From positions 327,645 to 391,644 of the forward strand of contig CALVMC010000001.1 of NCBI GenBank assembly GCA_944342015.1: 64,000 bases of DNA, in the 5' to 3' direction. The DNA is from an uncultured Clostridia bacterium (lineage in GTDB: Bacteria > Bacillota > Clostridia > Christensenellales > CALVMC01). The notes under the pieces are model-generated. The model was not told where the DNA came from. It was given only the letters and a program-made list of their open reading frames with translations, and did no database searches. Both the position numbers and the translations under genes were made by a program. Positions 4,314 through 52,400 of this stretch are shown here, one piece after another; the stretch's first letter is position 1, and every line of letters starts with the position of its first letter.

Positions 4314-4331
4314 AAAAAGCTCCTGAACCTT

Positions 4332-5768
4332 TTAATGTTTTTTAAATTTTTCCTTGCCCAATCTCTTTATCAGTTTTTCCTTATCGAGTTCGATAAATGT
4401 CTTTTCCCTTTTCGGATATTGCGTTGGCTCGGGTTTTGTCATAATATAGTATCTTAAAGCGTCAAGAGCGTGGTCGTCTTTTTTCTTGGGAACATCGCCT
4501 TTTCCCCACCAATAACTCTTAATTTCTCTTATTAAATTTATACAGTTTTTAAAAATGTATAATTTAGGAGGATCACTGCCGAGATAGGTTTTTACTCTGT
4601 TAATTCCCGAAAAAAGTTCCTTATTGACTTTCGGATTGACATAAATACCTTTCTCTAAAAAAAGTTCTGTTACGCTTCTTTGAGAAGCGAGAGTTTTCTG
4701 ACTTGCCGCACTGTCGATAATTGCACAAAGCCTGCCTTTGGAATCCCTATGCCAATTTAAACTGTCGGCTAATTTAAAAATCTTTTCAGAATGGTAATTT
4801 ATATCCTTTCCCTCTTCATAGTGTTCTGCTACGACAAAAACATTGCCGTCGTAATCGACAGCAAAAAACAGACAGGCAAGCGGATTGTTAAGACCGGGGT
4901 CTATGGAAATTCCGTCCTGCCAATCGTAAGGAATATCGAAAGGTTCTATAACATGCAATCTTTCATCGAATTCTTTATATACCAATCCTTCCGCTTCATT
5001 GAATCTTCCGTATCTTCTCGATTCCAGACTGTCTTTCGACAAAGCGGAAGAAAGCCTTTTTATTTCTTTTTCGCTGAGATACGGATTATCGAGCCATTCC
5101 ATATTGATATGCCATACTTCGCTGTCGCACGAAGAATTCAAATAAATTTCATCATAAACCCAAGTCAGCCCTTTAAGCGGAGTCATAGTACCCCATATTT
5201 CCCCGCATCTGTCCAGAACTCTCATACGACATTCTTCATAGATATCCTTGGGCGGCTCTTCATCGAACCATACAAAATCCAAAGAAGCACCCTGAAATTT
5301 TTCTCTGCCCTGTTCGCAGTTTTTAAAACTTATTTTGGATAATCCCCCGTACACATTTTTTATAAGTATATAATCGATGATTCCGTAAGAGGGCGAGCCT
5401 TTTTTCCCTTCGCTCATAACGACATCCTGTATCCAGGACTCGGAAAGATATGAAAGAAGTTTTTGCTGCGCCACTTCCCTTTGAACCTGTGCCGATAATG
5501 AAACTACCCAACCGCATACATCGGGCTTGTTTTCTTTATAAGGATGATTCCCCCTTGCCTTCCATACCGCCTCGACTGCTCCGCATTCTGTTTTTCCCGA
5601 ACGGTTACCACCGAAAACCCATCTGTTTCTTTTGGTGCATTTATGAAACTCCATCTGTTTAACATGAACTTTTTCACCGCTGTTATAGTTTTTCAGCTTT
5701 TCGCATCCTTTTCTTTTCTCTATTTCCTTTTCGACGGCAATCAATCTGAGTAAGTTTACTTTATCCAT
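4332..5768 (-). CDS. terL: Phage terminase large subunit
   Basis: 478 aa with Walker A GGNRSGKT, Walker B-like LDFVWFDEE and a C-terminal nuclease-type region. First gene of the packaging/head operon, with SD AAGGATGGTG. Confidence 0.85.
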   Translation of the reverse strand: MDKVNLLRLIAVEKEIEKRKGCEKLKNYNSGEKVHVKQMEFHKCTKRNRWVFGGNRSGKTECGAVEAVWKARGNHPYKENKPDVCGWVVSLSAQVQREVAQQKLLSYLSESWIQDVVMSEGKKGSPSYGIIDYILIKNVYGGLSKISFKNCEQGREKFQGASLDFVWFDEEPPKDIYEECRMRVLDRCGEIWGTMTPLKGLTWVYDEIYLNSSCDSEVWHINMEWLDNPYLSEKEIKRLSSALSKDSLESRRYGRFNEAEGLVYKEFDERLHVIEPFDIPYDWQDGISIDPGLNNPLACLFFAVDYDGNVFVVAEHYEEGKDINYHSEKIFKLADSLNWHRDSKGRLCAIIDSAASQKTLASQRSVTELFLEKGIYVNPKVNKELFSGINRVKTYLGSDPPKLYIFKNCINLIREIKSYWWGKGDVPKKKDDHALDALRYYIMTKPEPTQYPKREKTFIELDKEKLIKRLGKEKFKKH

Positions 5769-6863: not shown

Positions 6864-7471
6864 TTAAACGCTATATAATTTCTGTTGTTTTCCTGTAATA
6901 TTTTAATTGCACTGCTTTTAAGATTCTCATAACTTTCGTGCGTTTTCTTTTCCAATGTACCTTTTTTCTTTTTTCTGAGTTCGAATATTTTTTTGTTTTC
7001 TATAATCCCTGCTTCTATGGAGTTTTTTTGCCCTAAAAAGAAATCGTCGTTCCCGAACACATTTTGAAAATATTCTTCATTATAACCGCATTTGTCAAGT
7101 ATGTAACAGAATTTATTCAAAGCCTTTTCGACGCACCTGAAACAACTTGAAACAGGTACTCCTGTTTTTTGCGATATTCTGTTATAGCTTACTCCTTTAA
7201 TATATCTTAATTTTAAAAACTTAATTTCTTCTTTTTCAAGATAAGAAAATGCTTCGTCAATTATTAATTTGATTACAATAAAACTTTTTTTCTTTTCCAC
7301 AAGTTCGCTTAATTTAACAAGGGAATTATATGTCCCTTCCTGAGGATTCTGCGTTATAAATTCAAAACTGCACCTTCTGTCTATTTCTTTATCGCAAGCT
7401 TTGTAATATTGCGAAAGTTTATCCGCTAACGACAAAATAACTTTTGACCAAACCATTAAATTTTTTACCAT
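6860..7471 (-). CDS. Sigma-70 region-4-like HTH protein, putative phage late-gene activator
   Basis: LKLRYIKGVSYNRISQKTGVPVSSCFRCVEKALNKF resembles a sigma region 4 / ArpU-RinA-type HTH. The ATG at 7471 is preceded by GGAGGG, whereas the ORF-track start at 7483 lacks an SD. Confidence 0.5.
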   Translation of the reverse strand: MVKNLMVWSKVILSLADKLSQYYKACDKEIDRRCSFEFITQNPQEGTYNSLVKLSELVEKKKSFIVIKLIIDEAFSYLEKEEIKFLKLRYIKGVSYNRISQKTGVPVSSCFRCVEKALNKFCYILDKCGYNEEYFQNVFGNDDFFLGQKNSIEAGIIENKKIFELRKKKKGTLEKKTHESYENLKSSAIKILQENNRNYIAFN

Positions 7472-34519: not shown

Positions 34520-34628
34520 ATAAAACTTTAATTAAATTAAAGAATAATTCAATGTATTTCAATATATAAAAAATTAATCTAATTAAACATATATACCATA
34601 TTTTCTATAATTGATTAATTTATTATAT

Positions 34629-34709
34629 TAATTTGTATCGATTATTTTTTTAAATTAATTTTTATCGATTTATTTTTTATACTAATTTTTATCGAATCAG
34701 TTAATTAAA
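34629..34709. repeat. Three tandem 27-bp direct repeats with conserved TAATTT(G/T)TATCGA(T/A)T core
   Basis: Units start at 34629, 34656 and 34683 (exact 27-bp period). The first 15 nt are conserved and the third unit degenerates into the adjacent terminator. Confidence 0.7.
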
Positions 34710-34734
34710 AAAGACCGATAATATCGGTCTTTTA
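34706..34734 (-). terminator. Rho-independent terminator of the actin-like operon (bidirectional shape)
   Basis: AGACCGA (34712-34718) / TCGGTCT (34724-34730) with loop TAATA. T5 follows on the minus strand and TTT on the plus strand. Confidence 0.7.
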
Positions 34735-34764: not shown

Positions 34765-36063
34765 TTATTTTTTCAACAAACTGAGAAGAAAATCTCTTCC
34801 TGCCGCCTCACCGTCAGGCGGAGTATCTTCACCCATAAGAGACGAAGCAAACGGATTACTTGCTTTGCCCCCTTTACTACCTGAGGAAGACTTTGCAGGT
34901 TCTCTTCTTTCAATAACCTCTTGCTGTTTAGGAGGCTTATAGTTCGGATTAGCTGTTTTAGAAGACGAAGCTGGTTGCTGCTGAGGAGCAGGAGCGGCTT
35001 CTGCGACAATAGGTTCAGGTGCGGGAGCTGCTGCAACAGGTTCAACAGTCTGAACAGGTTGCGGAGCCGGAGTCGGAGCCGGAGCCGGCGCAGGAGCAGC
35101 AGGAGGTGCAGCCTGGATAACAGGCGGCGCTTGCTGAACTATCGGCTCAGATTGCTGTTGAACAGGTTGTTGCGGTACTTGTTGCACTTGTTGAACTTGT
35201 GGTTGATATTGCTGTTGAGTAGGAGGCGCAACATTTACATACTGAGGCTGAGCAGGCATTGAGGGTTGCATTTGAGTTGCCATAACAGGTTGCTGTTGTT
35301 GCATAGGAATTTGCTGGTTAGTCATACCCTGTTGAATCGGTTGCTGAGCCGGCATATTAGAAATTCTCGGACCTGCAACACCGTTTTGCATTTGCTGTTG
35401 CAAAAGTCTTTGTTGCTGATCAACCATTTGTTGCTGCATCATCATTTGCTGCTGCATAAACTGCCTTTGCTGATCGGCCATTTGTTGCATTTGTGCTTGA
35501 ATTTTTTGCTCGGCTACTTGTTGTTGTAAAGCCTGTCTCTGTTGTTCAACTAACTGTCTTTGCTGTTCTATATATTGATTTTGAAGTCTTTGCTGACCTA
35601 AAAATCCGCTATATGTACCCGTCTGCGGAGCTTGCTGGTCGTAACCGTTAGAATTAAAAGCAGAACCGAACCTGGAAACATTATTTAAAAATCTCGGAAC
35701 ATTTTCATTACTAAGTCTCATATAGTCTCTTGAACGCAAGTAATCGCTACCGGGTTGTTCAAAATTGTTATTTGCAGTATTAAGATTAATACCTTGCGCA
35801 TGAGCTACATTGACAAGTTGATTTTCCATTTTTGCGAAGCAACGGAGTACTTCTTGGACTTTATTATGAATACGCCCGATAATTACTCCGTTGATATCGC
35901 TTACTCTACTGTTGTTAAGTTTGGCAATTATGTTAAGAGCAATTTTCAAATACTGCATATCAAGATACTGAGAAGTAACGATTTCTTCCAAAGCGAAATC
36001 AGCATCGTTTCTCATACCGTTTCTACCGTATTTATCGTTGAAACTGCCGTTATTATTATACAT
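34765..36063 (-). CDS. Q/P/A-rich low-complexity protein (432 aa): folded N-terminal region, long disordered region, short amphipathic C-terminal peptide
   Basis: The ATG at 36063 is preceded by GAGGTGG. The sequence has runs such as QQQMMMQQQMVDQQQRLLQQQMQ and APAPAPAPTPAP and ends GRDFLLSLLKK. It lies immediately downstream of the ParM-like gene. Confidence 0.7.
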   Translation of the reverse strand: MYNNNGSFNDKYGRNGMRNDADFALEEIVTSQYLDMQYLKIALNIIAKLNNSRVSDINGVIIGRIHNKVQEVLRCFAKMENQLVNVAHAQGINLNTANNNFEQPGSDYLRSRDYMRLSNENVPRFLNNVSRFGSAFNSNGYDQQAPQTGTYSGFLGQQRLQNQYIEQQRQLVEQQRQALQQQVAEQKIQAQMQQMADQQRQFMQQQMMMQQQMVDQQQRLLQQQMQNGVAGPRISNMPAQQPIQQGMTNQQIPMQQQQPVMATQMQPSMPAQPQYVNVAPPTQQQYQPQVQQVQQVPQQPVQQQSEPIVQQAPPVIQAAPPAAPAPAPAPTPAPQPVQTVEPVAAAPAPEPIVAEAAPAPQQQPASSSKTANPNYKPPKQQEVIERREPAKSSSGSKGGKASNPFASSLMGEDTPPDGEAAGRDFLLSLLKK

Positions 36064-36122
36064 AATTACCACCTCATTCCGCATCTGCGGAAAACTTCTG
36101 TTAAACTACTCAGAAAACCGAA

Positions 36123-37166
36123 TTAGAATTTACCTAAAAGATAGAAACCTCTGCAGTTAGAAATCTGAGCATTTTCTTTAATTACAAGACGGCTGTCCTG
36201 GAACTGATCTCTAAGTTCTTTTTCAAATAACATAGCGCCACCGCCGGTAAGAATAATTCTGTAAAACTGAGAGAATTCGAGACCTAATGACATAACCTTC
36301 TGATAAATAGTTCTTGCGCTATCCATCTTATGTTCAGCAACAATACTGCTTAAATCGAATTCACCGAAAGGAGTTTCAATTGTAGTAGATTGTAAAAGCT
36401 GATTATCCAATTCGTGAGCGTTAAGACCGTAAATATTAGCTTCAGGCATTCTGTTGTTGACATCTTCCTGAATACTTGCTATATAGTCCGAAACACCGAT
36501 TTCGAAACCGAATGTCGAACGGACTTTACTTGATTCAAGAATAGCCAAGTCAAGAGTACCCCAACCTATATCGATAACGATTACCTTTTTCTTTAAGAGA
36601 CCCGGGTTGATATATTCGCCGTTATCGTCAACCATATAGTCATACATAGTACCGAGAGGCTGAGCTACGACTAGAACGTCAACTACATCGAAAGTAATTT
36701 CGTCAACTTTTGCCCAAGTAACTTCTTTAACGGTATGAACACCGAGAAGAGTTTCTTTAAGTTTGTTGATGACTTCGGTATTTTTAGCATAGTTACTGGG
36801 AACACCGGTAACAACTCTGATTTTTTCGACTTTACCGGGAGTTAAAAGTTTTGAAAGACCGATAACCGATTCAACCTGGAAGTCATCTGAACGGTATCTC
36901 TGTTGTCCACGACCGCCGGAACCCATAACCGAGAGGTCGCCGACTTCGTAAACTTCGTTGTTGTAAACATACATTTTGTAATCAGTGTTAAATGAGAAAA
37001 TAACACCTGCGTCGTTAATCTTCTTCAAAGTATTCCTGTAAACGATACTAGCGTCGTCAGTGTAAGCCTTTAAAGTCGAGTTAGCAACGTCGATACCGAT
37101 AACTTTGGTATAAGCTAAATCTTCTCCTGATTGCATTTCCATTGCTTCTTCATTGTTCTTTTTCAT
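36123..37166 (-). CDS. ParM/StbA-family actin-like ATPase
   Basis: 347 aa with the actin-fold motifs VIGIDVANSTLK, VIVIDIGWGTLDLAI and IILTGGGAMLFE. The C-terminal NAQISNCRGFYLLGKF resembles the ParM ending. SD AAAGGAG. Confidence 0.85.
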   Translation of the reverse strand: MKKNNEEAMEMQSGEDLAYTKVIGIDVANSTLKAYTDDASIVYRNTLKKINDAGVIFSFNTDYKMYVYNNEVYEVGDLSVMGSGGRGQQRYRSDDFQVESVIGLSKLLTPGKVEKIRVVTGVPSNYAKNTEVINKLKETLLGVHTVKEVTWAKVDEITFDVVDVLVVAQPLGTMYDYMVDDNGEYINPGLLKKKVIVIDIGWGTLDLAILESSKVRSTFGFEIGVSDYIASIQEDVNNRMPEANIYGLNAHELDNQLLQSTTIETPFGEFDLSSIVAEHKMDSARTIYQKVMSLGLEFSQFYRIILTGGGAMLFEKELRDQFQDSRLVIKENAQISNCRGFYLLGKF

Positions 37167-37195: not shown

Positions 37196-37507
37196 TTATT
37201 TTCTACCTATATGTTGTAGGTTTTTAATTTTATCTTCGATATCTTTACTTTTAAGTTCTTTAACTTCTTCTTTGACAACTTTTGTTTCTTGTAAAGCTAT
37301 TTCATTTTCGATCTGATTTTTATTCATATCGTAATTCAAAGCATCGGGTCCTTTTGGCTCTTCTTTAACTTCTTTTACTTTTTTAGGTCTGTTTTTAAGC
37401 TTAGGAAGCCAGAAAACGAAGAACAGAGTAATTAAAACTATAACGACAACTATAGCTATAATTATTGCTACTAAAACTCCGATATTATTTAAAAGATATT
37501 CCCACAT
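37196..37507 (-). CDS. Small bitopic membrane protein with K/E-rich coiled tail
   Basis: 103 aa with an N-terminal TM helix (IGVLVAIIIAIVVVIVLITLFFVFWL) followed by a charged helical region. SD AAGGGGTGAG. First gene of the operon. Confidence 0.6.
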   Translation of the reverse strand: MWEYLLNNIGVLVAIIIAIVVVIVLITLFFVFWLPKLKNRPKKVKEVKEEPKGPDALNYDMNKNQIENEIALQETKVVKEEVKELKSKDIEDKIKNLQHIGRK

Positions 37508-37598: not shown

Positions 37599-38366
37599 TT
37601 ACGACAATTTTTTCAAAAACTTTTCTATTTTTAATAAAGTTGCGTCAGCCCAGCTGTAATCGAACATATACTCTCCGTTAAAATTAATTTTATTTTTATT
37701 GACTCCCTTAAACAAACTGTAATAGTCGCAGGAAAGCAATTTAGTATTCAAACTAAGTGCACCCCTTTGAACATTTACAAGTTCCGAACAACCATAAAGC
37801 TTTAAAGTTTTTCTTAAATTCATTACTGCTTTACGGTAAAGAGTTTTTACGTTTTTATCATATTCTTTAAAAGGCCAGAGTATATCGATAGCTTGTTCCA
37901 TAGTAACAAGACCGCCCCTTCTGTCAACAAGAAGAGCAAATAGTTCTTTTGCCTTAGCGCTTACGAACTTCATAATTTCCCCGTCCACGAAGACGTCGAG
38001 TCTTCCGAAAGTTCTTACGAAAATCCTTTTTCTGCTTTCGGGAAAATTTCCTAAAAGAGAAAAAATTTCTTTTAACGCATTTTCTTCTATCGGATAAAGA
38101 AGATAAGCGGATACCATTTTGTTAGTTATCAAGAAACCCGAATCCGAAGAAACGATGCAAACTATTTTTGTATTCATAAAATCCTTATAGATAGATTTTA
38201 TTAAATTTACATCATAATCGATTACAACAAAATCGATATCGTTCAGGTTCAGATACTCCATAAATTCGGTATTGTCATAGAACCCGCAAACACATTCCAC
38301 ATCGTGTAGATTTTTACATAAAGCTTTAATTTCATTATCGTATTGACAGTTAGAAACAAATTTCAT
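37599..38366 (-). CDS. SARP/OmpR-type winged-helix regulator with degenerate receiver-like N-terminal domain (COG3947-like)
   Basis: FGRLDVFVDGEIMKFVSAKAKELFALLVDRRGGLVTMEQAIDILWP is typical of SARP/BTAD-family DNA-binding domains. The N-terminal half is REC-like but lacks the acidic pair and the conserved Lys. The ATG at 38366 is preceded by AAGGATG. Confidence 0.7.
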   Translation of the reverse strand: MKFVSNCQYDNEIKALCKNLHDVECVCGFYDNTEFMEYLNLNDIDFVVIDYDVNLIKSIYKDFMNTKIVCIVSSDSGFLITNKMVSAYLLYPIEENALKEIFSLLGNFPESRKRIFVRTFGRLDVFVDGEIMKFVSAKAKELFALLVDRRGGLVTMEQAIDILWPFKEYDKNVKTLYRKAVMNLRKTLKLYGCSELVNVQRGALSLNTKLLSCDYYSLFKGVNKNKINFNGEYMFDYSWADATLLKIEKFLKKLS

Positions 38367-38534
38367 ATTTTCATCCTTTAAACAAGACAATATTAAAGCC
38401 CAATTTTAATATATGTCAATTAATATATTTTATGCGCTTATGCAGCGAGCGTAAGGCATAAGCATTTCGACATTTTAGGAAAAAAACGAACACAAAATAG
38501 AATTCTGATAATTTAATTATTAATCTAAAAATTA

Positions 38535-38677: not shown

Positions 38678-41600
38678 TTAATTTTCAGATATTTCAGGAT
38701 AAATGAATTTTTCTGAAAAAACCTTCCAATTATCGTTTTGTAAATATAAAGACGCTGTTGCATTATCTATAAATTCTATTTTTTCTATATTTTGAGGTAT
38801 CAGCCCTGTGGGAAAGTCCATAACTTCCTCAGGCAAAGTAATTATAGAATTAATTTTAAGATTTTTAAGATTAATCAATGTTTGGTAATCAACGCCGCTT
38901 GAAAATTCCACTTTATCCCCGAGTTCGATACCGGTTAAAGAATCAAGACCGCAAAATACATCGTTTTCCAAAATCAAACCGTTTTCTGAAATAATGGATA
39001 AGAATTGTAAATTAATTTGATTTGTATCTGAATTTTCACCAAAGAAATAATATATATCCCTTAATATAGAATCGGCACTTGCCTCCGATTTAATTTCAAA
39101 AGGAATTGTTAATGAAATAAGGTCATCGCAATTATAGAATATTCTATTTCCCGCTACGGAAAGAAGTTCAGAAAATACCAAAGTTTCAACAGCAGTGTTT
39201 GAAAAAGCCTGATCCCCTATCGATATCACGTTTTCCAATCCCGTTATAGAAGTGAGCTTCGAGCAATCACTGAAAGCATTTCCCCCTATTTCAGATACAA
39301 ATCCTTCCAAAGCAATTGTAGTTAAATTAACAAAAGAAGAAAAAGCATTTTCGGATAAACTGATTTTCTGCGATTCTGTTCCGTTATTTACCAATGTAAA
39401 CGAAGTCAATGAAACGCTGTTTACTCCGCCGAAATAATAATTAAGCCGTCTTGAAATTTTAGTATCGTTTCCCGCTTCTCTCAAATTTAACGGCGCCGCT
39501 AATGTCGTTACGGAACTGCAACCTTGAAATACCGATGTCCCTAATATTTGCAGCGAAGAAGGCAATACCAGAGATGTAACTCTTGTACAATTTTTAAAGG
39601 CTTGGTTCCCTATTGCCGTAAGTCTTTCTCCGAATGCAAGTGTTGTTATTGCATTACAACCTGAAAAAGCATTTTCATTTATATTTACCGCATCTATATA
39701 AAGCGTATTTAAGGAAGAATATTTTACTCCGTTTTTATCATTTAAAAAGTTAGAAGTTATTGTATCGGCAGAATATATTTCAAGACTTGTTAAATTCAAT
39801 TCCGATACTCCAAATTCCCCAAACCAACTTAAAAGTGTAGGCATATTGTTCCCTGTTCCGAACGCAAAAGGCGCTTTGAATGCGGTAATATTAAAGCAAC
39901 CGTTAAACGGACTTGCCCCGACAGTAAGTGCCGAAAAATCAGTATTGCTTGCAAATGCTACCGATGTAAGTCCCAAACAACCCTTGAAGGCATTATCTCC
40001 TATATCGGTAATATTACTTGAAAAGACGATATTATCGCTCAATGGACAGTTTTCAAAAGCATTGTTACCTATTGAAGTAACAGCCGCAAGTCCTCCGATA
40101 TGATAAAGATTGACGCATCCTTTAAATGCTGAATTACCTATTGATGTAACATAAGACAAATCCACTTCTTCGAGTCCTACACAGTTTTGGAAAGCATTTT
40201 CAGAAATAGTCACCCCGCTCGATGTCAATCCGTTATCAAGGATTGTCAAATCGGTGATATTACTGAAATCAGTAGTCCCGAACAAATGCGTAAGTCCCTT
40301 GAAGGAAGCCGCTGAATTTTGGCTTTCATCTTTAACAACAAAAGGAATAGTCAAGGAATTTATTGTAGTCAGTTTTGAAAGAGCTTTATTATATATTATA
40401 GTTATAGTATCAGGCAAAATTAAAGTTTCCACATTTGTTGCGCCTTTAAAAGTATAATCTGCATTAGAAGTTTCGGAATAAGTAACAGTAGTCAATCCCG
40501 ATAAGACTTCAAGATAAAAAAGTAACGGTAATAAAGTGGCTCCGAAATAATAGCTGAGATTAATATCCGAATAACTTTTTGCAAAAGTACCGCTTGACTC
40601 TGAATATTTTCTGATATTTAAAGGCAAAATCAATTCCGTAACAGAAGCATCTCTGCTTTCGCAAGCAAAAACGCTGTTGCCGAAAAGCACACTACTGCTT
40701 TTAATTTCGATACGACTTAAAGAATAACAGTTATAAAAAGCCTTACTTTTTACGCTATTAATATTTGCCCCTATTTCAAGACCGCTTAGGGAATAACAAT
40801 TCTGAAAAGCTCTTTCGTTTATAATTACATCACTTGCCTTAAATTGTACCGAACCTAATAAATTACAATTTAAAAATGAAGAACTGCCGAAATTTTGAAC
40901 ATTGTCTACATTAAGATTTCGCAAGCTTATACAGTTTTCAAAAGCCGATTCGCCTATTTGAGCTACTCCCACAGCAGAAGATTTGGACAAATTGACATTG
41001 TTTATAGACGCACAATCTTTAAAAGCATATTTACCGATTTTTGTTACAGTATAAGGTAAAATTACATATGAGTCTGAACCTGGAACAGTACCCTGTCCGT
41101 CATAAACTCTTTTAAGTTTTTCACAGCCCTCAAAAAGGCTTTCGGAAATCTCCGTTAAATTATTGTCGCTATAAATATCATAAAGCAAGTCGACTTCGAC
41201 AAGAGCGGTGCAATTTTTAAAAGCCGAACTGCCTATAACCGACACGGAAGCAGGAACGGAAAGACTTTCTATCGATGAGCAATTCAAGAATGCTTCTTTT
41301 CCTATTGAAGAGAGCTGATTTCCGAACACGATATCTGATAACGATACGCAATTTGAAAAAACTCCGTTTTTAATAGTGACTATATTATTGAGATTTACCG
41401 TTTCGAGCAAACTGCAATTAGAAAATAAATTATTTTCAAGTGTGGTAATCTGACTCGGAATATTAATTTGAGTAATAGGTAAATTTTCAAAGGTACCTTC
41501 TTTAATTTCAGTAAGACTCGAAGGCAAAATTATTTCGGCAATAGTATTTATTTTTATGTAGTTATTTTCGTTTCCCACCGATAAACTGCTTTTTTCTAAA

Positions 41601-43381
41601 ACTTGCAGATTGAATACCGTTAACGACAGCAGCGAAGGAACGGTATCGCCGAAAAAGTAATACAAACCTGTTTCCGATAAATTAGCGTCATAAGAGATTT
41701 GATGGTTTAAAAGAGCGACTGCTGACGATTGAGCCGGCGATGAGCCTGCATCATTTACGACTTTAAACGAAAGGGCTAAATTTTCAATACCCGCACAATT
41801 TTTAAAGACATTTTGTTTTATATTGACCAGAGTTTCAGGCAACAATATTTCGGTAAGCGATATTGCGTCCCAAAATGCTCCTTCGCCTAAATATGATAAT
41901 TTATCGAGACGGTTAATGTTTCCGATTCCTGTAAGATATTTTAAATTGATACAATTCTGAAAAGCATAATCGCCTATAATCTCAATATCGGACAGATTTA
42001 TGCTGTCGACAAGTGTAAAATCCTTAAAGGTTTCATTTTCAATAGAATTAACGCTTTCAGAAAAAGTTATGCTTTTCACCGAAGTAAATTTAACATTATT
42101 ATTATCTGTGTCGGTATATGAAAAGAATAACGGTGAAATGTAATTTAAATCGGTATTAACATTCAGATTAATAGAAAATAAATCACTTGCACTGTCGCCG
42201 AAATAGTTTTCGAAAGTTACAGCATTATTAAGATATAAAGAAATATTTTTTAAAGAAACACAATTATAAAGAATTTTATCTCCAATATCCGTTGCGTTTC
42301 CGACATCGAAACTTGTAAGAGAAATACAATCTTTAAATGCGCCGTCTCCTATTATTGCCACGCTGTCGGGAACGGTAAACGATCGAAGATTGCTAAATCC
42401 TTCGAATGTATATTGATCAATTTGAGTCACGGTTTCGGGCAAGGTAACGGCTCTTACATTCTGCCCTAACTTATACTGATTATTTTCCCCGTAATAAAAA
42501 ATATCCTGATTGATTGAATCTATTTTTCCGTTGATAACCAAGGTATTTATTGCCGTCAATTTCATTGAATTTTTAAATATATTTGCAGGAGTTTGGGAAT
42601 TTGTGAAATCGGCTTCGAGATAGGTTAATTTATTGCAATTTGAAAAGGCTCCCTCTCCTACTGTGGTATCGGAAGGTAAAGTCAATTGAGTTAAAGCGCT
42701 GTACTGAAAAGCGTATGCGCCAATATTATCAACAGAATCGCCGAATTCAAAAGAAGTTAATTTTACACAGTTATAAAATGCTTGATCGCCTATTGAAACA
42801 AGGGAGGCCGGCGTATTTACGGAAATAAGGACGCTGCAATTCATAAAAGCGCTGTTTCCGATACGGGTGACCGAATCCGGAAGCGTGACCGAATATAAAT
42901 ATTTATTTTTAAAAGCTCCTTCTCCTATTTCGGTAACGGGAAATCCTTGTATTGTATTCGGTATTGTCAGTGTTTGAGAAGTATAAAAATTATTTAAGCC
43001 GGTAACAGTTACGCAATTATCCTGAACGGTATAAATAAGACTGTTATAGACGGCAGGGTCAACCACACTGTATTTTATGTCCAATGTAATACCCTCATAG
43101 GTAATTGTCATTGTTTTTGAGCCTTCCGTCAGAGTATTGAATCCCGTTATCATTTTTTCGTCGAGATAAACAAATCCGATACTTCCGTCTTCATAGAATA
43201 AATTTAGCTTAATCCCGTCAAGATTTAACTCTTCGCCCAAAACAAAATCCGTCTTAAAGTCATCGCCCACACTGATAGAGGAAATAAAAACATTTTTTTT
43301 CTCCACATTACAAGCGCATAAACTTAATAAGGATAAGACAAATGCAACTGCTACTATTATTATTTTTTTAAAGCTTTTCAT
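38678..43381 (-). CDS. Giant BspA-type leucine-rich-repeat (LRR_5-like) surface lipoprotein, 1567 aa
   Basis: Signal peptide with lipobox (LLSLCAC), an N-terminal Ig-like domain (ITGFNTLTEGSKTMTITYEGITLDIKYSV), then dozens of IGxxAFxxCxxLxS(I/V) repeats. Confidence 0.85.
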   Translation of the reverse strand: MKSFKKIIIVAVAFVLSLLSLCACNVEKKNVFISSISVGDDFKTDFVLGEELNLDGIKLNLFYEDGSIGFVYLDEKMITGFNTLTEGSKTMTITYEGITLDIKYSVVDPAVYNSLIYTVQDNCVTVTGLNNFYTSQTLTIPNTIQGFPVTEIGEGAFKNKYLYSVTLPDSVTRIGNSAFMNCSVLISVNTPASLVSIGDQAFYNCVKLTSFEFGDSVDNIGAYAFQYSALTQLTLPSDTTVGEGAFSNCNKLTYLEADFTNSQTPANIFKNSMKLTAINTLVINGKIDSINQDIFYYGENNQYKLGQNVRAVTLPETVTQIDQYTFEGFSNLRSFTVPDSVAIIGDGAFKDCISLTSFDVGNATDIGDKILYNCVSLKNISLYLNNAVTFENYFGDSASDLFSINLNVNTDLNYISPLFFSYTDTDNNNVKFTSVKSITFSESVNSIENETFKDFTLVDSINLSDIEIIGDYAFQNCINLKYLTGIGNINRLDKLSYLGEGAFWDAISLTEILLPETLVNIKQNVFKNCAGIENLALSFKVVNDAGSSPAQSSAVALLNHQISYDANLSETGLYYFFGDTVPSLLSLTVFNLQVLEKSSLSVGNENNYIKINTIAEIILPSSLTEIKEGTFENLPITQINIPSQITTLENNLFSNCSLLETVNLNNIVTIKNGVFSNCVSLSDIVFGNQLSSIGKEAFLNCSSIESLSVPASVSVIGSSAFKNCTALVEVDLLYDIYSDNNLTEISESLFEGCEKLKRVYDGQGTVPGSDSYVILPYTVTKIGKYAFKDCASINNVNLSKSSAVGVAQIGESAFENCISLRNLNVDNVQNFGSSSFLNCNLLGSVQFKASDVIINERAFQNCYSLSGLEIGANINSVKSKAFYNCYSLSRIEIKSSSVLFGNSVFACESRDASVTELILPLNIRKYSESSGTFAKSYSDINLSYYFGATLLPLLFYLEVLSGLTTVTYSETSNADYTFKGATNVETLILPDTITIIYNKALSKLTTINSLTIPFVVKDESQNSAASFKGLTHLFGTTDFSNITDLTILDNGLTSSGVTISENAFQNCVGLEEVDLSYVTSIGNSAFKGCVNLYHIGGLAAVTSIGNNAFENCPLSDNIVFSSNITDIGDNAFKGCLGLTSVAFASNTDFSALTVGASPFNGCFNITAFKAPFAFGTGNNMPTLLSWFGEFGVSELNLTSLEIYSADTITSNFLNDKNGVKYSSLNTLYIDAVNINENAFSGCNAITTLAFGERLTAIGNQAFKNCTRVTSLVLPSSLQILGTSVFQGCSSVTTLAAPLNLREAGNDTKISRRLNYYFGGVNSVSLTSFTLVNNGTESQKISLSENAFSSFVNLTTIALEGFVSEIGGNAFSDCSKLTSITGLENVISIGDQAFSNTAVETLVFSELLSVAGNRIFYNCDDLISLTIPFEIKSEASADSILRDIYYFFGENSDTNQINLQFLSIISENGLILENDVFCGLDSLTGIELGDKVEFSSGVDYQTLINLKNLKINSIITLPEEVMDFPTGLIPQNIEKIEFIDNATASLYLQNDNWKVFSEKFIYPEISEN

Positions 43382-43404: not shown

Positions 43405-46400
43405 TTATACATTTTCAATAGAATTTGAACTGTTTGTGACTGTATAATTTCTTTTATATTTGTCGCCAAATACCGCCAATTCGCTTTTTAATTGTGCATT
43501 CGGCGAAAGATTGATAATATACAATAAAGGCAATTTTTCACCATACTTAGCCAATTCGCCGATATAATCGGAAGGATACTTAGTCAAGCAAGGCAAATAA
43601 ATAGTACACTTATAACTTAACTCATTAAAAGGAACATCTGTAAGAGTCAAATCGGCATTTACATTAATTTTAATTTGAGTAAAACTATGAACGCCTTCAA
43701 ATACTCCCGTTCCCAATGTAAGGGCAGAATTAAATGTAAGATCCGATAAAGAGGTACAACCCTTAAAAGCATTGTTTTTAATTTCCGTAATGCTGCTTGG
43801 TAAATTAATCGAAGTAAGAGAAGTACAACCTTCGAAGGAATTGTACCCTATAATCTGAATAGAACCATTTAAGGTAACGGAAGCAAGTGCTGTACAATTT
43901 AAAAATGCAAAATCTCCCAAATAATTAAGAGTGGTTTGAGTCAAATTAAAAACTACTGTTGTAATCAAATTATTGTTTGAAAAGGCGTCCTTGCCCAAAG
44001 AAGTAATACTGTTAAACTGCAATGTGAAATTTGAAGACTCGTTGGTTGTCGCAGTTTCATTACCGTTTTCAGTAGAATTAAATGCATTCTTAAAAGCATA
44101 ATCTCCTATGGACACGATATTATCGAAATTAATTGCACTTTGAAGTTTTGTGTTTCCGAACGCATTCTCTCCAATATTTTTAACAGATGACGGCAAACCG
44201 AATTTATCCTTTTGATCAACTGAATCATAGTATAACACTTTTGAAAGTTTTACTGCGTTGTAAAATGCATTTGACGAAATACTTGTCAAAGCGCTATTTC
44301 CACCGAAATTAACAGAAGTCAGACTGTCACAATTTTCAAATACATTTGTTCCCAACGAACTTACCGAACTTAAATTTATCGAAGTTATATTCGAGCCGTT
44401 GAAAGCATTGTTACCGATAGATTGAACGGTATTTTTCAAAGTAACGGTTCCCAATAAATCAATATCCTTAAAAGCGTCGTTTATTACGGAAGCACCTACA
44501 ATAGTAATATTAATTAAATTTGGATTGCTCTCTTCTCCACTCGCTGAAACGGCAGAACTTAAAGTTAAATAATCCGATAATTTATATACTGAAAAATCGG
44601 CGGTAAAATCGGTAATCGCGCTGCATCCGTCAAAAATCTGAGCATTTGTGCCGGGTGTTGCAGCTACTATTGTAGTATTTTGCGAATTAAGAACAACGGT
44701 TTTTAAATCGGTGCAGTTTCTGAATGAATAATCCCCTATATTTAAATCAGAACCGCTGATATTAATTGACTCGATAGAAGAACCTTCAAAAGACCAATGG
44801 TTAAGATTGACATTCCCTATTAATTTCAAATCAAGTATTGCGCTCCCTGCAAAAGCCGACCAACCTATTGTGGAATTATCTTGAAAGACCACAGTAAACT
44901 TTGTTCCATACAAACTGAAACCCGACGGCTGATACTGATAGAATGCCTGATTTTTCACATTTGTCGAAGTTATTTCGAATTCGGTAAAATGAGCGACGCT
45001 TGTAAAGTATGCGGAAGATGAACCTTGAAGATTTTTCGTATCGAAAGGCGCAATTAACTTTATAAGGTTAGTGCAATTTTTGAAAATGTAATTTTCGTCA
45101 GAACTTGACCCGAAATTTATTGAATTAGTTGAACCTGTAACGGCAATTTCAAGTTGAGTAATAGCGGTGCACTCAGCAAAAGCAAGACTTCCAAAAGTCG
45201 CTAATGAAAGAGCTGCGGGAATTATAAGTCGTATAGAATAAGCGGAATTTTGCTCGCCTCTTACAAAAGACTTATAGAAAGCTTGATTTCCAAGTGATGT
45301 TAAAGAAGTGAGATTGAGATAGATTATTGCGTTTTGATTAGGTTCAGAATTTCCGCCGTCCCCCGTGCCATTATCGCTTGTTGCTTCCGCCGAATTAACG
45401 GTTAGTTGTATAGCGGTTTCATAGAAGGCTTTTTCGCCTAAATTTTTAATATTTTGCAAACAGGTATTAGATATGCTGAGACTGTCGATATTTGCAAACG
45501 CACTTGCCCCGACGGTTTCGACATTTGTTAAATCTACCGAAGTTAAAGCCGTTCCTTTAAATGCGTTTGCACCTATTTCTGTAACGCTTCCTAAATTGAC
45601 AGTAGTTAAACTGCTGCAACCTTCAAATGCGCTTGCTTTAACCGAATTTCCTATAAGTATTATTTCAATCAAACTATTTGGTATGGAAGAAGTATCTCCT
45701 GAAATAAAGTAATTCGTGAGTATTTTATCTGAAAAATCAGCAGTCAATTTTTGAAGAGAAGAGCAACCTGAAAGCACACCTGTGCCTAATGTGATATTTG
45801 ATTTACTGAAAATGATTTCAGTAATTCCGTCGCAGTTTTTAAAAGCATTATCTCCTATATTTGTAGCACTGGTAAGCGTTAACTTATAACCGGAAGGATT
45901 TCCTGTCAATTTAATTGCGCTTTCAAACGCACCTGCTCCGATAGTCACGACATTTGTCAAATCAAACGAAGTCAAAGCCGTTCCCTTAAATGTGTTTGCG
46001 CCTATTTCGGTAACGCCGCCTAAATAAACGGTAGTTAAACTGCTGCAACCTTCAAATGCGCTTTGACCGATAAAAGTATAAGCAAAATTATAATCCCCCT
46101 GTTTTTCCAGAGAAGTTATTTCGTCACAGCCGTAGAAAGCGAACTGCCCTATTGAAGTAATGCTGTAAGGCAAAGTGATTCCATTTAAACTTTGACAGTT
46201 ATAAAAAGCATATTCTCCCACCGATTCAACGGCTAAATTCATACCTTGCGGGAAAATAATATTTTCAAGATTTACACAATTGTAAAACATATACGGCGAA
46301 TATGCATTTATATTGGTTTCCAAAGTAAGTTTCTTAATGGAAGAGCCTGCGAAAATAAAGTTGTTTAAAGTAACCTTGGAATTACTGCCGCCTATTGTAA

Positions 46401-49400
46401 CTTCGGCTTCGTCAGCGTCCAAACCTATGAAGGCAGCGGCACAAACAACATTTCCCAAAGTAGTGATTTTTTGGACATTGAAAGTCTTGTCGTTTAAAGT
46501 AGTAATTATATCTGAAATATTTTGAGAGGAAATCTCTTCGACCTCTTCTCCGTAATACTCGGCAAGCGTCATAGTGTTAAAAGGTGCCGTAAGTTCGGTA
46601 AGAGAATTTGCGCCGTTAATTAACCCTGTTCCGAACCCTGCGGAAGACACGGCGTTTATAACAATCTTAGAAAGCAAAGTACAGCCTTTGAATACATTGT
46701 TTCCCAATTGATCTGTGTTCTGAGAAAGATTGAACTCAATAGCGGCATTATCGGCGACGCAAACTGCATTTTCGAATGCGCTGTCGCCTATCGAAACAAG
46801 ATTATCGGGAAATTTTAAAACTTCGCTGACGGTGTCCGTCCCTGTTAATGTAACGACTTTTTTAAGATTATTGATATTAGAAAAAGCATTTGTTCCGATT
46901 GAAAATCCCGAAGCGCCCTCTCCTTTGAATTCAATTTTTTCTACTCCCTTTATATTTGCGAAAGCAAAATTACCTATGGAAAGTATTTCTGAATGGAAGG
47001 TAATTTTTTTAATATTCTCGAAATTATTCGTACCCTTATCATTGTCCGCATCGAGATTGAAAGCATTTGCGCCGATACTGCTTATAGCATACCCTGAAAC
47101 GGTAGCCGATAAATCTATAAAGCCTTCGGTGGAAACGCCTATCTGTGAACTTGCAGGAGCGAAATATTTAAGGTTATAGCAATTTTTGAAAGCGTTGTAA
47201 TCTATTGTTCTGAGTTTCGAATCTGCCTGTGAGGTTCCGCCGTATAAAACTTTTTCAAGAGAAATACAATTTTCAAAAGCGCCGTAATTGATGACTTCTA
47301 TATCGGAATCTATGGTTACGGTAGTAACGGTAGTATTTCCCTTTAAAGCTTCGAATTTAATGAACTTGGAATTACCGAAAGGAATAATATTAACGGTGGT
47401 AATTTTGGTAGACATACTTCCCGATTTAAAATAAGATTTGTTAACGTTACTTCCGCTAGTTGCATTATTTTCGGAGAGCAAACTCAATTCGGCAAAAGGA
47501 GCCGTTAATTCCTCGATATTGGTGCAACCGTTAATAATCTTATCGCCGATACTTGTAATGCCGTGAGAAAGTTCGAATGAAGTCAAGCTCAAATTATCGG
47601 AAAATACAAAGTTGCCTATCGAAGTAACATTAGAAAGATTTACGGTAGAAAAAGCATTTTTTGCAAGAGAGTAATCGAAAAGCGTGGTAAGCTTCGAAGG
47701 AAGTTCTGCGCTATAAGAGGTAGCAATACCTGAAATAATAGAAAATTTAGTTAACGAAGAACAACCGTAAAAAGCATAACCGTAAAAAGCGGAAACATTG
47801 CTGTCCTGACCGAATTTGATCTCGGTCAGAGAAGAACATTTATAGAAAGCATATTCGGGAATGGAAGTTAAAACATCGGGAACCGAAAAATAATTCGAAC
47901 CTGAATCCTGTTGTGTATTCCCTATCAAAGAAGAACAGTTGGCAAAAGCATAAGCTCCGATACCGTTATTTGCGGTAACTGCTGAAATATCTATAAACCG
48001 AACAGAGCTGCAACCTGCAAAAGCCTTTGAAGTTACGGAAGAACTTTTAACGACAATATCGGTAAGTTTATTATATTGCGAATATAAATCCGTTGCGCTT
48101 AAAAGCTGAGAGGAAGAGGAAGGAACGGTTACATTAAAGTAATCTCCCAAGGTTTTTGAATTGAACGGAGCCGTAAAACTTTCAATATTGTAACACCCTG
48201 CAAAAGCGTTTGAAGAGATACCCGAATCGGAAGAAACATTCAAAATTATTTCTTTAACATTAGAGCAATTATTAAAAGCATTTGCGCCGATAGTCAAAGC
48301 GTCAGATTTTAAATCTATAACAAACTGAGCGTTTTCTAAATTACTCGGTTTTACGAAGGCACCTGAAAAAGCATTTGTTTCGATAGAAGTAACCTGAGTT
48401 CCGAAAACGAAACTGTTAAGACTGCCCGTATTTTTAAATGCGCTGTCTTTTATCGTACTGACTCGTGACGGGAAATTATTATCTTGCACTTGCGCATTCG
48501 GTAACAATTCTGCAAATACCGATAACTGACTGCAATTCAAAAAGGCATTTTTGGGAATTTCCGTTAACATTATTTGCGAGTTGAAATAAACGGAAGTAAG
48601 CAAACTTGAATTTTCGAATGCGCCTTCGCCTAACGAAGAAAGGGAATCGGGAAGTAAAAAGTTAATTAAAGCTGTATTATAAAAAGCCTGAGCCCCTATT
48701 TGAGATACGGAAGAAGGAACCGAATTGAGAGAATTTTGACCTTCGTCCTGGGTATCCGAAAGGCTCGAAAGCGTGCCGTTGTTTGTTGTTTCGTATACAG
48801 AAGCAAGTTTCAAATCGTTATAAAAAGCTTTATCCCCTATGGAAGTAATATTAAAGTTGCTACTTGCCCCCGAAGAAAATTTATCGAAGACAACAGTTGT
48901 CAGATTCTGACAATTTTGAAAAGCAGCCGAACAAATTGTAGTAACCGAAGAAGGAATATTGACATTTACGAGATTGGAGCAATTTTTAAAAACTCCGATA
49001 CCGATAGTTTTAATTCCGTGAGAAAGTTCTATATTCTGCAAATTATTCATGGCACTGAAAATATTCTGTTCTTCGGTGGCACTTCCTATTATTTCCAAGG
49101 AACCCGGAAGAACGACTTCTTGCAATTTATTTTGCAAAGCTATGTACAATTGAGAGCCGGTATCGGAAGGGTCGTTGAAAATATCGATAGTAAATTCAGT
49201 CAACCCCTCACGAATAATAAGTGTTTCCAAGGCGATAGTCTGAGTTGAAGTAACAATATTCTCAAAGTAATCGTAAAGAGTAAAGTTAACGCTTTCGCTG
49301 TAAATTGTTCCTGTAAAAGGAGCTTCCAAAGTTTTAAGCGAGGTAAGATTTTTAAGGGCGCCGGGAACGAGATTAAAATCTGAATCCGATCCGATTTCTT

Positions 49401-52400
49401 TTTCATGCAAAATATAAAGACTTTCAAGCGGATAACTTCCGTATATTTCACCCGAACTGTTATAGTAGAAGAAATTCTTTTGCAGCGAAGTAAGTCCGTT
49501 AAGAACCGTCAAAGAAGTAAGATTTACCTTATTTGCGGAAACCGAAGAATTATCTCCGAAATAATAAGACAACGGAATATCGGTAAAAGTATCGGAAGTA
49601 CCTGTGTCGGTTATTTTTTTGACATTGAAAGGAGCCGTCATTGTCTTTAAGGAAACCGTACCTTTAAGAATATCGCTTCCCACGGAAGTTACATTTGAAC
49701 TTAAATAAATTTCCGTAATACCGCTGTTTACAAAAGCCTCGTCAAAGATTTCGGATACAGAATTCATATTAAGATAAATTCCGGAATTAACATTGTCAGC
49801 GTTTAAAATATTCTGAATCAACTGACCGTCAATCTGCCCTGCATAACGCAAAGAACCTATATCTTTAAAGGCTCCTTGGGAAATTGCAGAACCAACCGTA
49901 GTGACATAAAGTTTATTTTCGAAAGAATAAGCGTCGAATTCGCCGTCGAAAGCAAACACCTGATTGAAAGTATAATCTGACATATTAATTCTGAGGTCGG
50001 ACAAAGAAAGGCAACCGTAAAGAACGGCATTGCCGAAATCGGTAACTTTTTCAAAATTTGCGCCTGTGAGATTAGAACAGTTTTTAAAAGCGTTATTTCC
50101 TAAACTCGTAACATTGTTAAGATTAATTTCGATAGAAACAGTACCCGAAAGAGCGGAGGATAAATTCTGAACCCCCGAGCTATTATCCACTGCTATAACT
50201 GAGGTAACATAGGTATTATTTTCAAAGGCGCTTTCGCAAACGCTGCTGCCGGATACCTTGATTTCCATATCGGCGGAAGGATGAAAATCCGTCCCGAAGT
50301 AGTGATTGAAAGTATAGCCTCCCGTATTGCTGCTATTGAAATAAGCCTCGAAATAAGTTATGTTAACGGCGCCTTTAAAAGCCGATGTCATAAATAAATT
50401 TTGCGGATTTTTACTTGCAAAATCGTTAAGAGTAATGGAAGTAAGATTTAAGCAATTTTCAAAAATTCCCACTCCTGAATCCGTTATATTGGTTAAACTG
50501 TTATTTATCTCGGAAATAAGCGTATTTTTGAAAGCATAATCGCCGATAAAAACAACGGTTTCGGGAAGAGTGGAAATATCGTTGATTTCGGTATTTTCGA
50601 AAGCCGAAGCATTAATAGAAATAACGGTATCTTTTAATCTTACGATTATTTCATTCGCAGAATTTTGAACCGTTTCAGAATCGCTGAAAGAAGCAAGAGA
50701 AACGACGTTTAAATCTTTGAAACAGTTTTCGGAAACCGCATTGCCTGAAACTATAACAGTAAGTCCGTTTGCAAAATTCTGTGTTTCGCCGAAGAAACTC
50801 AACAGCGTTCTTGAAGACAAATCCGCCGAAAAAGTGTTAATGTTAGTGCAACCGGAAAAGGCATTTTGCCAGATATCGGAAGTCAGACTGCCCATGTCAA
50901 CGGTAGTCAACAACGAACAGTTTCTGAAAATATCCGTACCCGTATTTATTCCGTCAACAAGTTCCAAAGAAAGGAATTTCGTGTTTTCGAAAGCAAAGTC
51001 GCCGATAGTTTCGATATTACTGAAATCGAACGAAGAAAGGCTTGTATTTCTGAAAGCCTTTGCTCCTATGGAAATCAAAGAAGCAAAGGAAACGCTGCTT
51101 AATTGATTTGAATTTTCAAAAACCCCTTCGCCCAAAGAAGTAACGGTATCGCTTACAAAACTCAGAATATTGGTATCGGAAAAAGCATAGTCATGAATAG
51201 CGGTAAGAGAGTTCGGAAAAGAAAATGTATCGCTTGAAGAAAAAGTAGTTATCGATTTAAACGCACTCTCACCTATAATTTCGAGAGAAGTTAGATTGGA
51301 TAAATCAACTCTGTTCAAAACGGTACCCGTAAAAACTTCCTTTCCGATTCGGGCGATATTGCTGCCGCCTTCGAAATTGAATTGAGAAAGCGACGAGCAG
51401 TCTTTCAGATAAAAATCTCCTATTTCAGTCACGGTATCGGCGAATTGAGCGCTGAAAGATGTCAGAGAAGAACAACCGTTAAAAACTCCTTCATTTGCAG
51501 AACTCAAAATAATTTGAGACGGAAACTCGATATTGTTAAGATTATTACAATTTTTAAAAGCATAGCTGCCAAAATCTATATTACCTGAAATATTTCTGAT
51601 ATAAACTTTAACTTTTCCCGACAAAGTTCCGTTTGTCGTATCGCTGAAAATAACATTTTCAAGATTAGGCATATCGGCAAAAGCGGAATCGGAAACAGAA
51701 CTACCGCTTGCGTAAATGTTGATATTGTCAATTAAACGGGTACCGAAATAGTCGGAAACGGTATAATCAACAAAGGAAGCGCCGAAATGACGCAAGTTTT
51801 CTAAACCGTAAAGAAAACTGTCCGTTTCGGCACCGGTTATGATAACGCAGTCATCCGGAAGTATTAACGACGATAAAGACGAGCAACCTTGAAAAGGAGC
51901 CTTTAAATTGGAAAAGTCGTGATTGTCATCGCTGAAAGTTACATTTTGCAAGGCAGAAATATAAGAAAAGGAACCGATTGCAAAGCCGTCGTCGGAAGTT
52001 CCCCTGAGTCCGCCTTTAAGTTCGATATCGGAAAGAGCGGTATTTTTGAAAGCATAATTTCCGATAACCGATAAAGAAGACGGGAATTTGAAAGAAGTTA
52101 AGGACGAACAATTTTCAAAAGCGCTGTTTCCGATCGAAGCGACAGTTTCGGGAAGATTCAATCCCGTCTCGGTTGCGGTAAGTTTGTTGTACAGTTTAAT
52201 TGTTTTTAACTTTGAACAGCCATAAAACATTTCATCGGGAACAGATGAAAAAAGTTCGTTATCGTTATCGATAGAAAAAATAACTTCGTTAAGATTAATA
52301 CAATCTTTGAATCCTCCGCCGTTAAAAACGGTACTTGCGCTTAATTCGACAGAGTCCAATTTCTGACAACCCGAAAAAGCATTTGCTCCGATTTCCTCGA

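Follow-up and report, generated by a model that had tools for sequence, protein, structure and literature searches.

The ParR proteins of the ParMRC systems (R1, pSK41 and pB171) are about 100–130 amino acids (aa) long, carry a ribbon-helix-helix (RHH) DNA-binding domain and act on plasmid parC repeats. They are encoded beside a ParM-family actin and have a folded N-terminal domain connected through a flexible region to a short helix at the C-terminus; ParM accommodates this helix in a hydrophobic pocket (PDB 4a62; PMC5016525). This pocket is also used by a short helix within a disordered region of MinC. In the CorMR/FcmBC systems of filamentous cyanobacteria, a chromosomal ParMR has been repurposed for cell shape, and a vertically conserved ParM-derived actin is accompanied by a downstream adaptor that links the filaments to the membrane instead of DNA (PMC12645912). 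Chromosome-encoded ParM-fold actins with adjoining small partner genes (cParMR) have also been documented in the Firmicutes Desulfitobacterium hafniense and Clostridium botulinum; there, the partners were chosen as 'ParR-like sequences' adjoining the cParM genes (PMC12270681). The present analysis concerns a gene found in a stretch of 64,000 nucleotides (nt) from an uncultured Clostridia bacterium (assembly GCA_944342015.1, contig CALVMC010000001.1, positions 327,645 to 391,644), hereafter the window. The gene, at 34765–36063 on the minus strand, encodes a 432-aa protein, hereafter the partner, and lies next to a gene encoding an actin-like ATPase.

We consider the partner to be, with a probability of about 55%, the adaptor cognate to a chromosomal, vertically conserved ParM-family actin-like protein. 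The elements on which this assignment is based are as follows.

34765–36063, minus strand: coding sequence of the partner (putative adaptor), 432 aa, with the stop codon at 34765–34767 (open reading frame (ORF) list and sequence).
35755–36063, minus strand: proline-free N-terminal region, aa 1–103 (0 Pro), with a probable helical domain at about aa 23–95 ending in ...AQGINL.
35374–35613, minus strand: Q-rich stretch, aa 151–230 (34 Q in 80 aa).
34864–35373, minus strand: P/Q/A-rich disordered tether, aa 231–400, recognized by its composition, unalignable between species and polymorphic in length between strains.
35062–35097, minus strand: hexanucleotide array encoding APAPAPAPTPAP (Tandem Repeats Finder (TRF): period 6, 6 copies, 83% matches).
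34768–34863, minus strand: conserved C-terminal module, aa 401–432, made up of NPFASSLMG, a G/D/P-rich spacer and AAGRDFLLSLLKK (orthologue alignment).
34768–34800, minus strand: terminal peptide GRDFLLSLLKK (motif conservation and a helix in the AlphaFold2 (AF2) model of a family member).
36123–37166, minus strand: ParM-family actin-like ATPase, 347 aa, located 59 nt upstream of the partner (Pfam, AF2 and Foldseek).

The partner gene is carried by the same strand as the actin gene, begins 59 nt downstream of it with its own ribosome-binding site (RBS) and is followed by a hairpin and a T-run. An in-frame extension up to position 36084 is possible; the sequence GAGGTGG is located 7 nt before the ATG at 36063, and public gene calls gave an identical 432-aa product on chromosomal contigs as long as 475 kb. 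All peptide stretches quoted in the sequence-only reading of this DNA were found in the ORF translation, and the layout that it proposed, namely, a folded N-terminal domain, a long disordered linker and a short conserved terminal peptide, was upheld. In FtsZ, as well as in the tail and tip of SSB, disordered linkers that vary in length and are unconstrained in sequence offer a short, strictly conserved terminal peptide to partner proteins. The likeness to these proteins is one of design principle and not of homology; in the partner, the linker extends from a folded domain rather than from a polymer, and the polymer would be encoded by the neighbouring gene. The partner had no match in Pfam, NCBIfam, PHROG or PADLOC, and its family is without annotation in any library searched.

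The neighbouring gene product, read from the sequence alone as ParM-like, was confirmed as a member of the ParM family. The Pfam domains ALP_N (52 bits), MreB-like_C and ParM were all found above their cut-offs, and the motifs DxANS, DIGWGT and TGGG were present and invariant. The core of the AF2 model had a predicted local distance difference test (pLDDT) score of more than 90. The best Foldseek matches of this model were ParMs, namely, those of pSK41, Dh-cParM1 and R1 (E-values of 1e-20 to 1e-18), and matches were also obtained with Ta0583, with CorM and with PDB 4a62, which is ParM with the C-terminal peptide of ParR. Dh-cParM1 (8x1i) was the second-best structural match, although the sequence identity in the structural alignment was only 18%. 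CorM (9rmi) was likewise among the best structural matches, whereas the score against the FcmB model NF052678 was 32.6 bits with a cut-off of 300, and the actin is consequently not a member of that family. It should be noted that the locus also differs from CorMR/FcmBC in belonging to a different phylum.

Orthologues of the actin with 50–61% identity formed more than 100 protein clusters, the named ones of which came from metagenome-assembled genomes of Christensenellaceae, Christensenellales, Clostridia or Firmicutes. The actin was encoded in 35 species genomes recovered from the gut metagenomes of termites, ruminants, mice and humans, and the actin–partner pair was present in at least 35 species of Christensenellales-like gut Clostridia, all of them uncultured. 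Wherever a contig end did not truncate the locus, the adjoining gene encoded a protein of 146–316 aa of the same plan. The partner gene was co-oriented with the actin gene in 33 of the 34 complete loci; in the remaining one, L030, it was inverted but adjoining. The contigs were up to 475 kb long, with DnaB and GroEL encoded about 8–10 kb from the cluster, and the cluster is therefore chromosomal. In the sister species, the actin fell into the same 90%-identity cluster as that of the window, while the partner was 71% identical in its N-terminal domain and had a rearranged tether. No relatives of the operon were found among the viral contigs of IMG/VR; the ParMs of phages and plasmids were at most 33% identical to the actin, and the only PHROG match of the operon was that of the actin to a phage partition PHROG. 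A phage or prophage origin was rejected on the basis of the IMG/VR result and of phage matches that were no more than 29% identical. Recent integration of a plasmid is unlikely given the identity of at most 33% to plasmid ParMs, and membership in a defence system was rejected, PADLOC having yielded no meaningful match.

The terminal peptide, a lack of conservation of which had been named as a refutation of the sequence-only reading, was found to be the most constant part of the family. The motif GRD[YF][LI][LMIF]x[LIF][LI] occurred exactly once per locus in the six-frame translation of all 34 complete loci, 2–8 residues from the stop codon and always in the gene adjoining the actin-like gene; we estimate that about 4e-4 such occurrences per locus would be expected by chance. 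When 29 partners were aligned, no column was invariant other than Met1 and, within this motif, the G, R, D and one L. A second, looser motif was located 12–20 residues before the first (PSPAEMLMG or F.LPGMGGG in relatives, NPFASSLMG in the window), and the conserved module thus comprises about 30 residues. The only universal companions of the terminal peptide were the actin and a transmembrane (TM) protein. Family member P0162 was modelled by AF2 with a terminal helix at residues 135–144 (pLDDT 58–66). The comparative evidence indicates that the gene pair is functionally coupled. In L030, at about 7240–7270 (minus strand), the terminal motif of the gene that is inverted yet adjoins the actin gene was kept (GRDFLLGLLSK). 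In a subfamily with acidic linkers (P0144, P0145, P0149, P0152–P0156, P0158, P0160 and P0161, all from outside the window), a second conserved motif of the linker, EKY[VLM]VVE, was located about 40–60 residues ahead of the terminal helix; it may represent an additional short linear motif.

The part of the protein between the N-terminal domain and the C-terminal module varied greatly. Partner lengths in the family ranged from 146 to 432 aa (median 227), that of the window being the longest, and the middle region ranged from about 50 to 300 aa. Its chemistry depended on the lineage and was either P/Q/M/A-rich or acidic (18–19% D + E, with Q at only 2–5%). Many linkers of the family were encoded by tandem DNA repeats, for example, 57 nt × 2.3 copies (90–96% matches), 18 nt × 6.9 and 30 nt × 5.3. 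The 90%-identity cluster to which the partner of the window belongs contained variants of 431 and 433 aa; in one of its lineages, APAP was absent, QQQQP was replaced by QQQQLQQQP (a three-residue insertion in the Q tract) and one S was missing. The Ala-Pro tract (aa 323–334), for which positions 35063–35086 read GGAGCCGGAGTCGGAGCCGGAGCC, had been considered prone to slippage. This was supported by strain variants P0129 and P0131, which lacked APAP, that is, two hexamer units; the predicted variation in the length of this tract was thus found among strains and is one instance of a general turnover of linkers. In the partner of the sister species (410 aa), four QSQQPMM repeats replaced part of the Q/P region, and the AP region was also different. 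Judging from these comparisons, the middle region looks like a freely evolving flexible tether, of which the presence is conserved and not the sequence, composition or length.

The composition of the whole protein was 18.8% Q, 10.0% A, 9.7% P and 7.4% N, with no prolines in aa 1–103 versus 42 in aa 104–432. The gene had been described as visibly richer in guanine and cytosine (GC) than the flanking DNA, and the rise itself is real, with a GC content in 300-nt windows of 0.54–0.55 at 34800–35249 versus 0.17–0.40 in the flanks. However, it is a trivial consequence of the codons for P, A and Q: the excess was restricted to codon positions 1 and 2, while the GC content at the third position (GC3) remained at 0.30–0.34 throughout the gene, as in the neighbouring genes. 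Consequently, the GC-richness is a by-product of amino acid composition and gives no sign of foreign DNA.

The N-terminal domain was analyzed at the level of both the family and the window. In the AF2 model of P0162, obtained with an alignment of 30 sequences, helices were predicted at residues 3–16, 24–47 and 54–80 (pLDDT 87–97) without an N-terminal strand, and residues 95–133 were disordered. In the Foldseek comparison of the family domain with PDB, no match to ParR or to RHH proteins was obtained, and only generic three-helix bundles were found (best E-value 0.66). The net charge of the family domains ranged from −7 to −1. Thus, as modelled, the N-terminal domain of the family is an acidic three-helix bundle and not the ribbon-helix-helix of ParR, and it does not look like a DNA binder. 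CorR differs from the partner family in keeping the RHH fold and in having an N-terminal amphipathic helix for the membrane, whereas the family model lacks an RHH and the operon encodes a TM protein of its own. The N-terminus of the partner of the window (MYNNNGSFNDKYGRNG) is polar; contact with the membrane, if any, would be made by the separate TM protein.

The remainder of the gene cluster in the window and its downstream region contain the following features.

37196–37507, minus strand: U2, the conserved single-pass membrane protein of the operon, which has 103 aa and a charged tail and is separated by 29 nt from the actin gene downstream of it (maximum Kyte–Doolittle hydropathy over 19 residues (KD19) of 3.65).
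37599–38390, minus strand: weak winged-helix protein, 255–263 aa, at the head of the cluster (C-terminal half; Pfam Trans_reg_C, E = 0.025, below the cut-off).
34709–34733, minus strand: perfect 12-bp hairpin followed by a T-run, a likely operon terminator (inverted repeat, sequence aaaagaccgatattatcggtctttttt).
34613–34695: 27-nt direct repeat in about 3 copies with the core TCGATA (TRF score 124), located in the 17%-GC gap between the partner gene and a convergent small ORF.

In relatives, the usual gene order was U3, U2, U1, actin and partner (L044 6290–7973, L045 5953–7991, L046 5552–7960 and no fewer than 30 further loci). U3 comprised 200–230 aa and was present in at least 30 loci, U2 was a single-pass membrane protein that combined LLNNP with a TM segment and a charged tail, and U1 was about 155 aa long; neither U1 nor U3 had a match in Pfam, PHROG or PADLOC. 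The U2 protein of the window had LLNN, a TM segment and KKK in common with the genes lying upstream in L007 and L044–L046, and U2 was also found in the sister species. U1 and U3 were missing from the whole of the window, the order there and in the sister species being putative regulator, U2, actin and partner.

The analysis shows the pairing of the genes, their place on the chromosome, the pattern of conservation, the variability of the tether and the fold of the family N-terminal domain; the engagement of the actin-like protein by the terminal helix, the ligand of the N-terminal domain and the role in the cell are inferred. The N-terminal helical domain, in the family an acidic three-helix bundle, would anchor the protein to a cargo or oligomerise; the cargo would probably not be DNA and might be the co-encoded single-pass membrane protein. 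The disordered tether would set the reach of the protein; it is turned over by replication slippage and tandem duplication, and in the lineage of the window it has grown to about 300 residues and drifted to a Q/P/A-rich composition. The C-terminal module of about 30 residues ending in GRD[YF]LΦxLL(KK) would dock on the actin-like protein much as ParR and CorR dock on ParM and CorM through their C-terminal helices, and the docking would couple filament ends to the cargo or modulate polymerisation. Direct binding of the terminal helix to the actin-like protein is suggested by analogy with these systems.

A broader proposal is tentative and, on balance, rather doubtful: that the locus represents an actin cytoskeleton, chromosomal and previously undescribed, shared as a core system by a large clade of uncultured, Christensenellales-like gut Clostridia. 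Under this proposal, a filament derived from ParM would act together with the single-pass membrane protein and with a three-helix-bundle adaptor that does not bind DNA and carries an invariant helix on an entropic tether, and the three would organise a non-DNA target such as the envelope or the giant surface proteins that often flank the operon; in the lineage of the window, the Q/P-rich tether of 300 residues would add multivalent, condensate-like behaviour. Chromosomal ParM-derived systems that do not serve segregation have only just been recognized (CorMR/FcmBC and the cParMs of Desulfitobacterium and C. botulinum, all in 2025), and the locus suggests a further independent case in abundant, almost wholly uncultured gut Clostridia. 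The adaptor would have lost, or never had, the DNA-binding fold of ParR, yet it retains the design of a tethered terminal helix. The family may also be regarded as a natural experiment on disordered linkers, with an invariant end motif, linkers ranging from acidic to P/Q-rich and partners of 146–432 aa. In the parts of the cParMR account covered here (PMC12270681), neither a long disordered tether nor the motif GRDYLLELL is mentioned.

Several results weigh against the assignment of the partner as an adaptor of this actin. When the actin of the window was modelled by AF2 as a fusion with the last 60 residues of the partner, with a multiple sequence alignment (MSA) of 108 homologues for the actin and none for the peptide part, the peptide remained undocked (pLDDT 31–40, with a helix of just 4 residues), while the actin was again modelled at more than 90. 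The contact between the peptide and the actin-like protein proposed in the sequence-only reading was thus absent from this single test, which is a weak negative of limited weight, being obtained with a single-chain predicted TM-score (ptm) model without a peptide MSA, a nucleotide or filament state, or a positive control. The terminal peptide had also been called amphipathic, a description to which its hydrophobic moment of 0.44 lends little weight: 30% of shuffled sequences reached the same value, and helical amphipathicity is therefore unremarkable. Furthermore, in an hhalign comparison, the N-terminal domain of the window matched that of the family with a probability of 0.5%, while the closest relatives of the actin (60% identity) carry the typical N-terminal domain of the family; the inference of a three-helix bundle may thus not be transferable to the N-terminal domain of the window.

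The N-terminal domain of the window had no match in Pfam or NCBIfam; no match was obtained when the first 167 aa were used in a word-indexed search for homologues or by tblastn against the orthologous loci, and sequence searches of PDB with the protein of the window and with the family profile yielded only noise. An exhaustive HMMER search with aa 1–150 against 1.8 billion representatives revealed P0121 of the sister species as the sole relative (71% identity). In a directed search with a hidden Markov model, aa 63–97 of the window were aligned only to helix 3 of the family (E-value about 0.01), the match ending in a shared GINL at an equal distance from the N-terminus. The family N-terminal domain was misaligned by MAFFT onto the Q-rich region of the window, and this alignment was not used as an MSA. 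Among members whose actins are 55–60% identical, only 12% of N-terminal domain pairs were detectable by BLAST, and plain divergence is thus sufficient to explain the dissimilarity.

An unlikely alternative is that the C-terminal helix contacts not the actin but the membrane, another operon product or a cellular hub, the partner being a scaffold that merely shares the operon. In MinD and FtsA, terminal amphipathic helices anchor the protein to the membrane. A single-pass membrane protein is encoded in every such operon, joined in most species by the conserved proteins U1 and U3, and the peptide was not docked on the actin in the AF2 fusion. The peptide, however, includes both D and E, its net charge is only about +1 and its mean hydrophobicity is −0.06 to −0.24; the negative hydrophobicity argues against a membrane-inserting helix, and the peptide is unlike typical membrane-targeting helices. 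As for other operon products, U1 and U3 are absent from the lineage of the window, where the peptide is unchanged, and the peptide universally co-occurs only with the actin and the TM protein.

It is quite improbable that the partner is a canonical ParR-type centromere-binding adaptor of a type II (ParMRC) DNA-segregation cassette serving the chromosome or the remnant of an integrated plasmid, with an N-terminal domain that binds DNA repeats. The gene occupies the position of parR beside a ParM-family gene, and chromosomal ParMR cassettes are documented (PMC12270681). In addition, among plasmid homologues of the actin, the closest one (33% identity), at locus L047 on the Mycoplasmatota plasmid CP074574.1, is followed downstream by a gene at 4015–4539 for a 174-aa protein, the N-terminus of which reads like a ribbon-helix-helix (HPISLRLNDHTDKELIKYLEE) and the C-terminus of which looks helical. 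A conventional-looking ParR beside the plasmid homologue is consistent with an origin of the actin in partition systems and a later change of the adaptor. The 27-nt direct repeat, with its 3 copies downstream of the gene in the window, was a candidate centromere and was rejected, being absent from the downstream region of the sister species, and no recurrent centromere-like repeat array was found around the operon in 35 orthologous loci. The N-terminal domain of the family, modelled as an acidic three-helix bundle, had no RHH or helix-turn-helix match, and the N-terminal region of the window had a neutral net charge. The partner has no sequence similarity to any ParR model of Pfam or NCBIfam and, in contrast to the plasmid ParR proteins, the family comprises proteins of 146–432 aa and belongs to chromosomal loci conserved across species: at least 35 species have kept the cassette, which lies on long contigs of the chromosome together with other conserved non-partition genes. 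Since the tested features that define ParR, namely, the fold and the centromere, were not found, the partner was classed as a ParR/CorR-like adaptor and not as a ParR.

A functional prion-like or condensate domain in the Q/N-rich region, through which the protein would acquire an aggregated state that is heritable or can be switched, as described for C. botulinum Rho, is a very improbable explanation of the protein. The partner shares with the prion-forming domain of this Rho a locally Q/N-rich low-complexity sequence in a protein of Clostridia, and the sequence-only reading had placed this property foremost. The Q/N content reached a maximum of 37 per 80 aa in windows starting at aa 125–245, above the rule of thumb of at least 30 per 80, and the Q-rich stretch is kept in the sister species. 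The PAPA-like score was borderline: it peaked at 0.07, just over the usual threshold of about 0.05, only at aa 198–226, that is, over about 30 residues, and because of proline it was strongly negative from aa 231 onward. Unlike a prion-forming domain of the Rho type, however, the Q stretch is broken up by charged residues (R, E, D and K), and the roughly 170 aa beyond it contain 36 prolines. Its Q/N-richness is also not conserved: just 3 of 55 family members had at least 30 Q/N per 80 aa, other lineages having acidic or P/M/A-rich linkers, and the acidic linkers of many members would be unable to form such a domain. The Q/N-richness is thus a lineage-specific composition of a region conserved as a tether and is most simply explained as compositional drift of a spacer rather than as a conserved prion domain; no result pointed to a condensate or amyloid role in this lineage. 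The Q-rich runs had also been described as coiled, for which a heptad occupancy of 0.52 versus 0.34 in the background provides little basis.

The possibility that the partner is a secreted or cell-wall low-complexity protein unrelated to the actin-like gene, suggested by the giant surface proteins encoded just upstream and by the P/A/Q-rich spacers common in Gram-positive surface proteins, is effectively refuted by its strict co-occurrence with the actin-like gene and by the lack of a signal peptide, a hydrophobic or TM segment (maximum KD19 of 0.81) and an LPXTG motif.

Among the minor features of the locus, the likely terminator hairpin at 34709–34733 was not listed by the consensus scan, its loop having fewer than 3 nt. 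At 36077–36092, just upstream of the RBS of the partner in the intergenic region between actin and partner, a hairpin with a perfect 6-bp palindrome (TTCCGCAGATGCGGAA) was found; it had no conserved counterpart in the sister species (L048 2240–2284).

The giant surface-type proteins of the window are encoded on the minus strand at 38678–43381 (1567 aa) and 43405–52935 (3176 aa) and contain LRR_5/Big_3 domains. Such proteins were encoded within 6 kb of the actin operon in about 13 of 36 loci, which belong to several subfamilies and include, besides the window, L007, L008, L011–L013, L030, L031, L036, L039, L044, L046 and L049. Those of other loci carried Flg_new, Flg_new_2 or Big_2 repeats, and in L011–L013 the giant gene directly followed the stop codon of the partner. 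This association is treated as a lead rather than a finding. The winged-helix-like gene at the head of the cluster was also found in the sister species (L048, 3–761) and was absent from the other loci; its product in the window (37599–38390), which had a weak PADLOC match to 'TPR', may regulate the operon or the adjacent leucine-rich repeat (LRR) genes.

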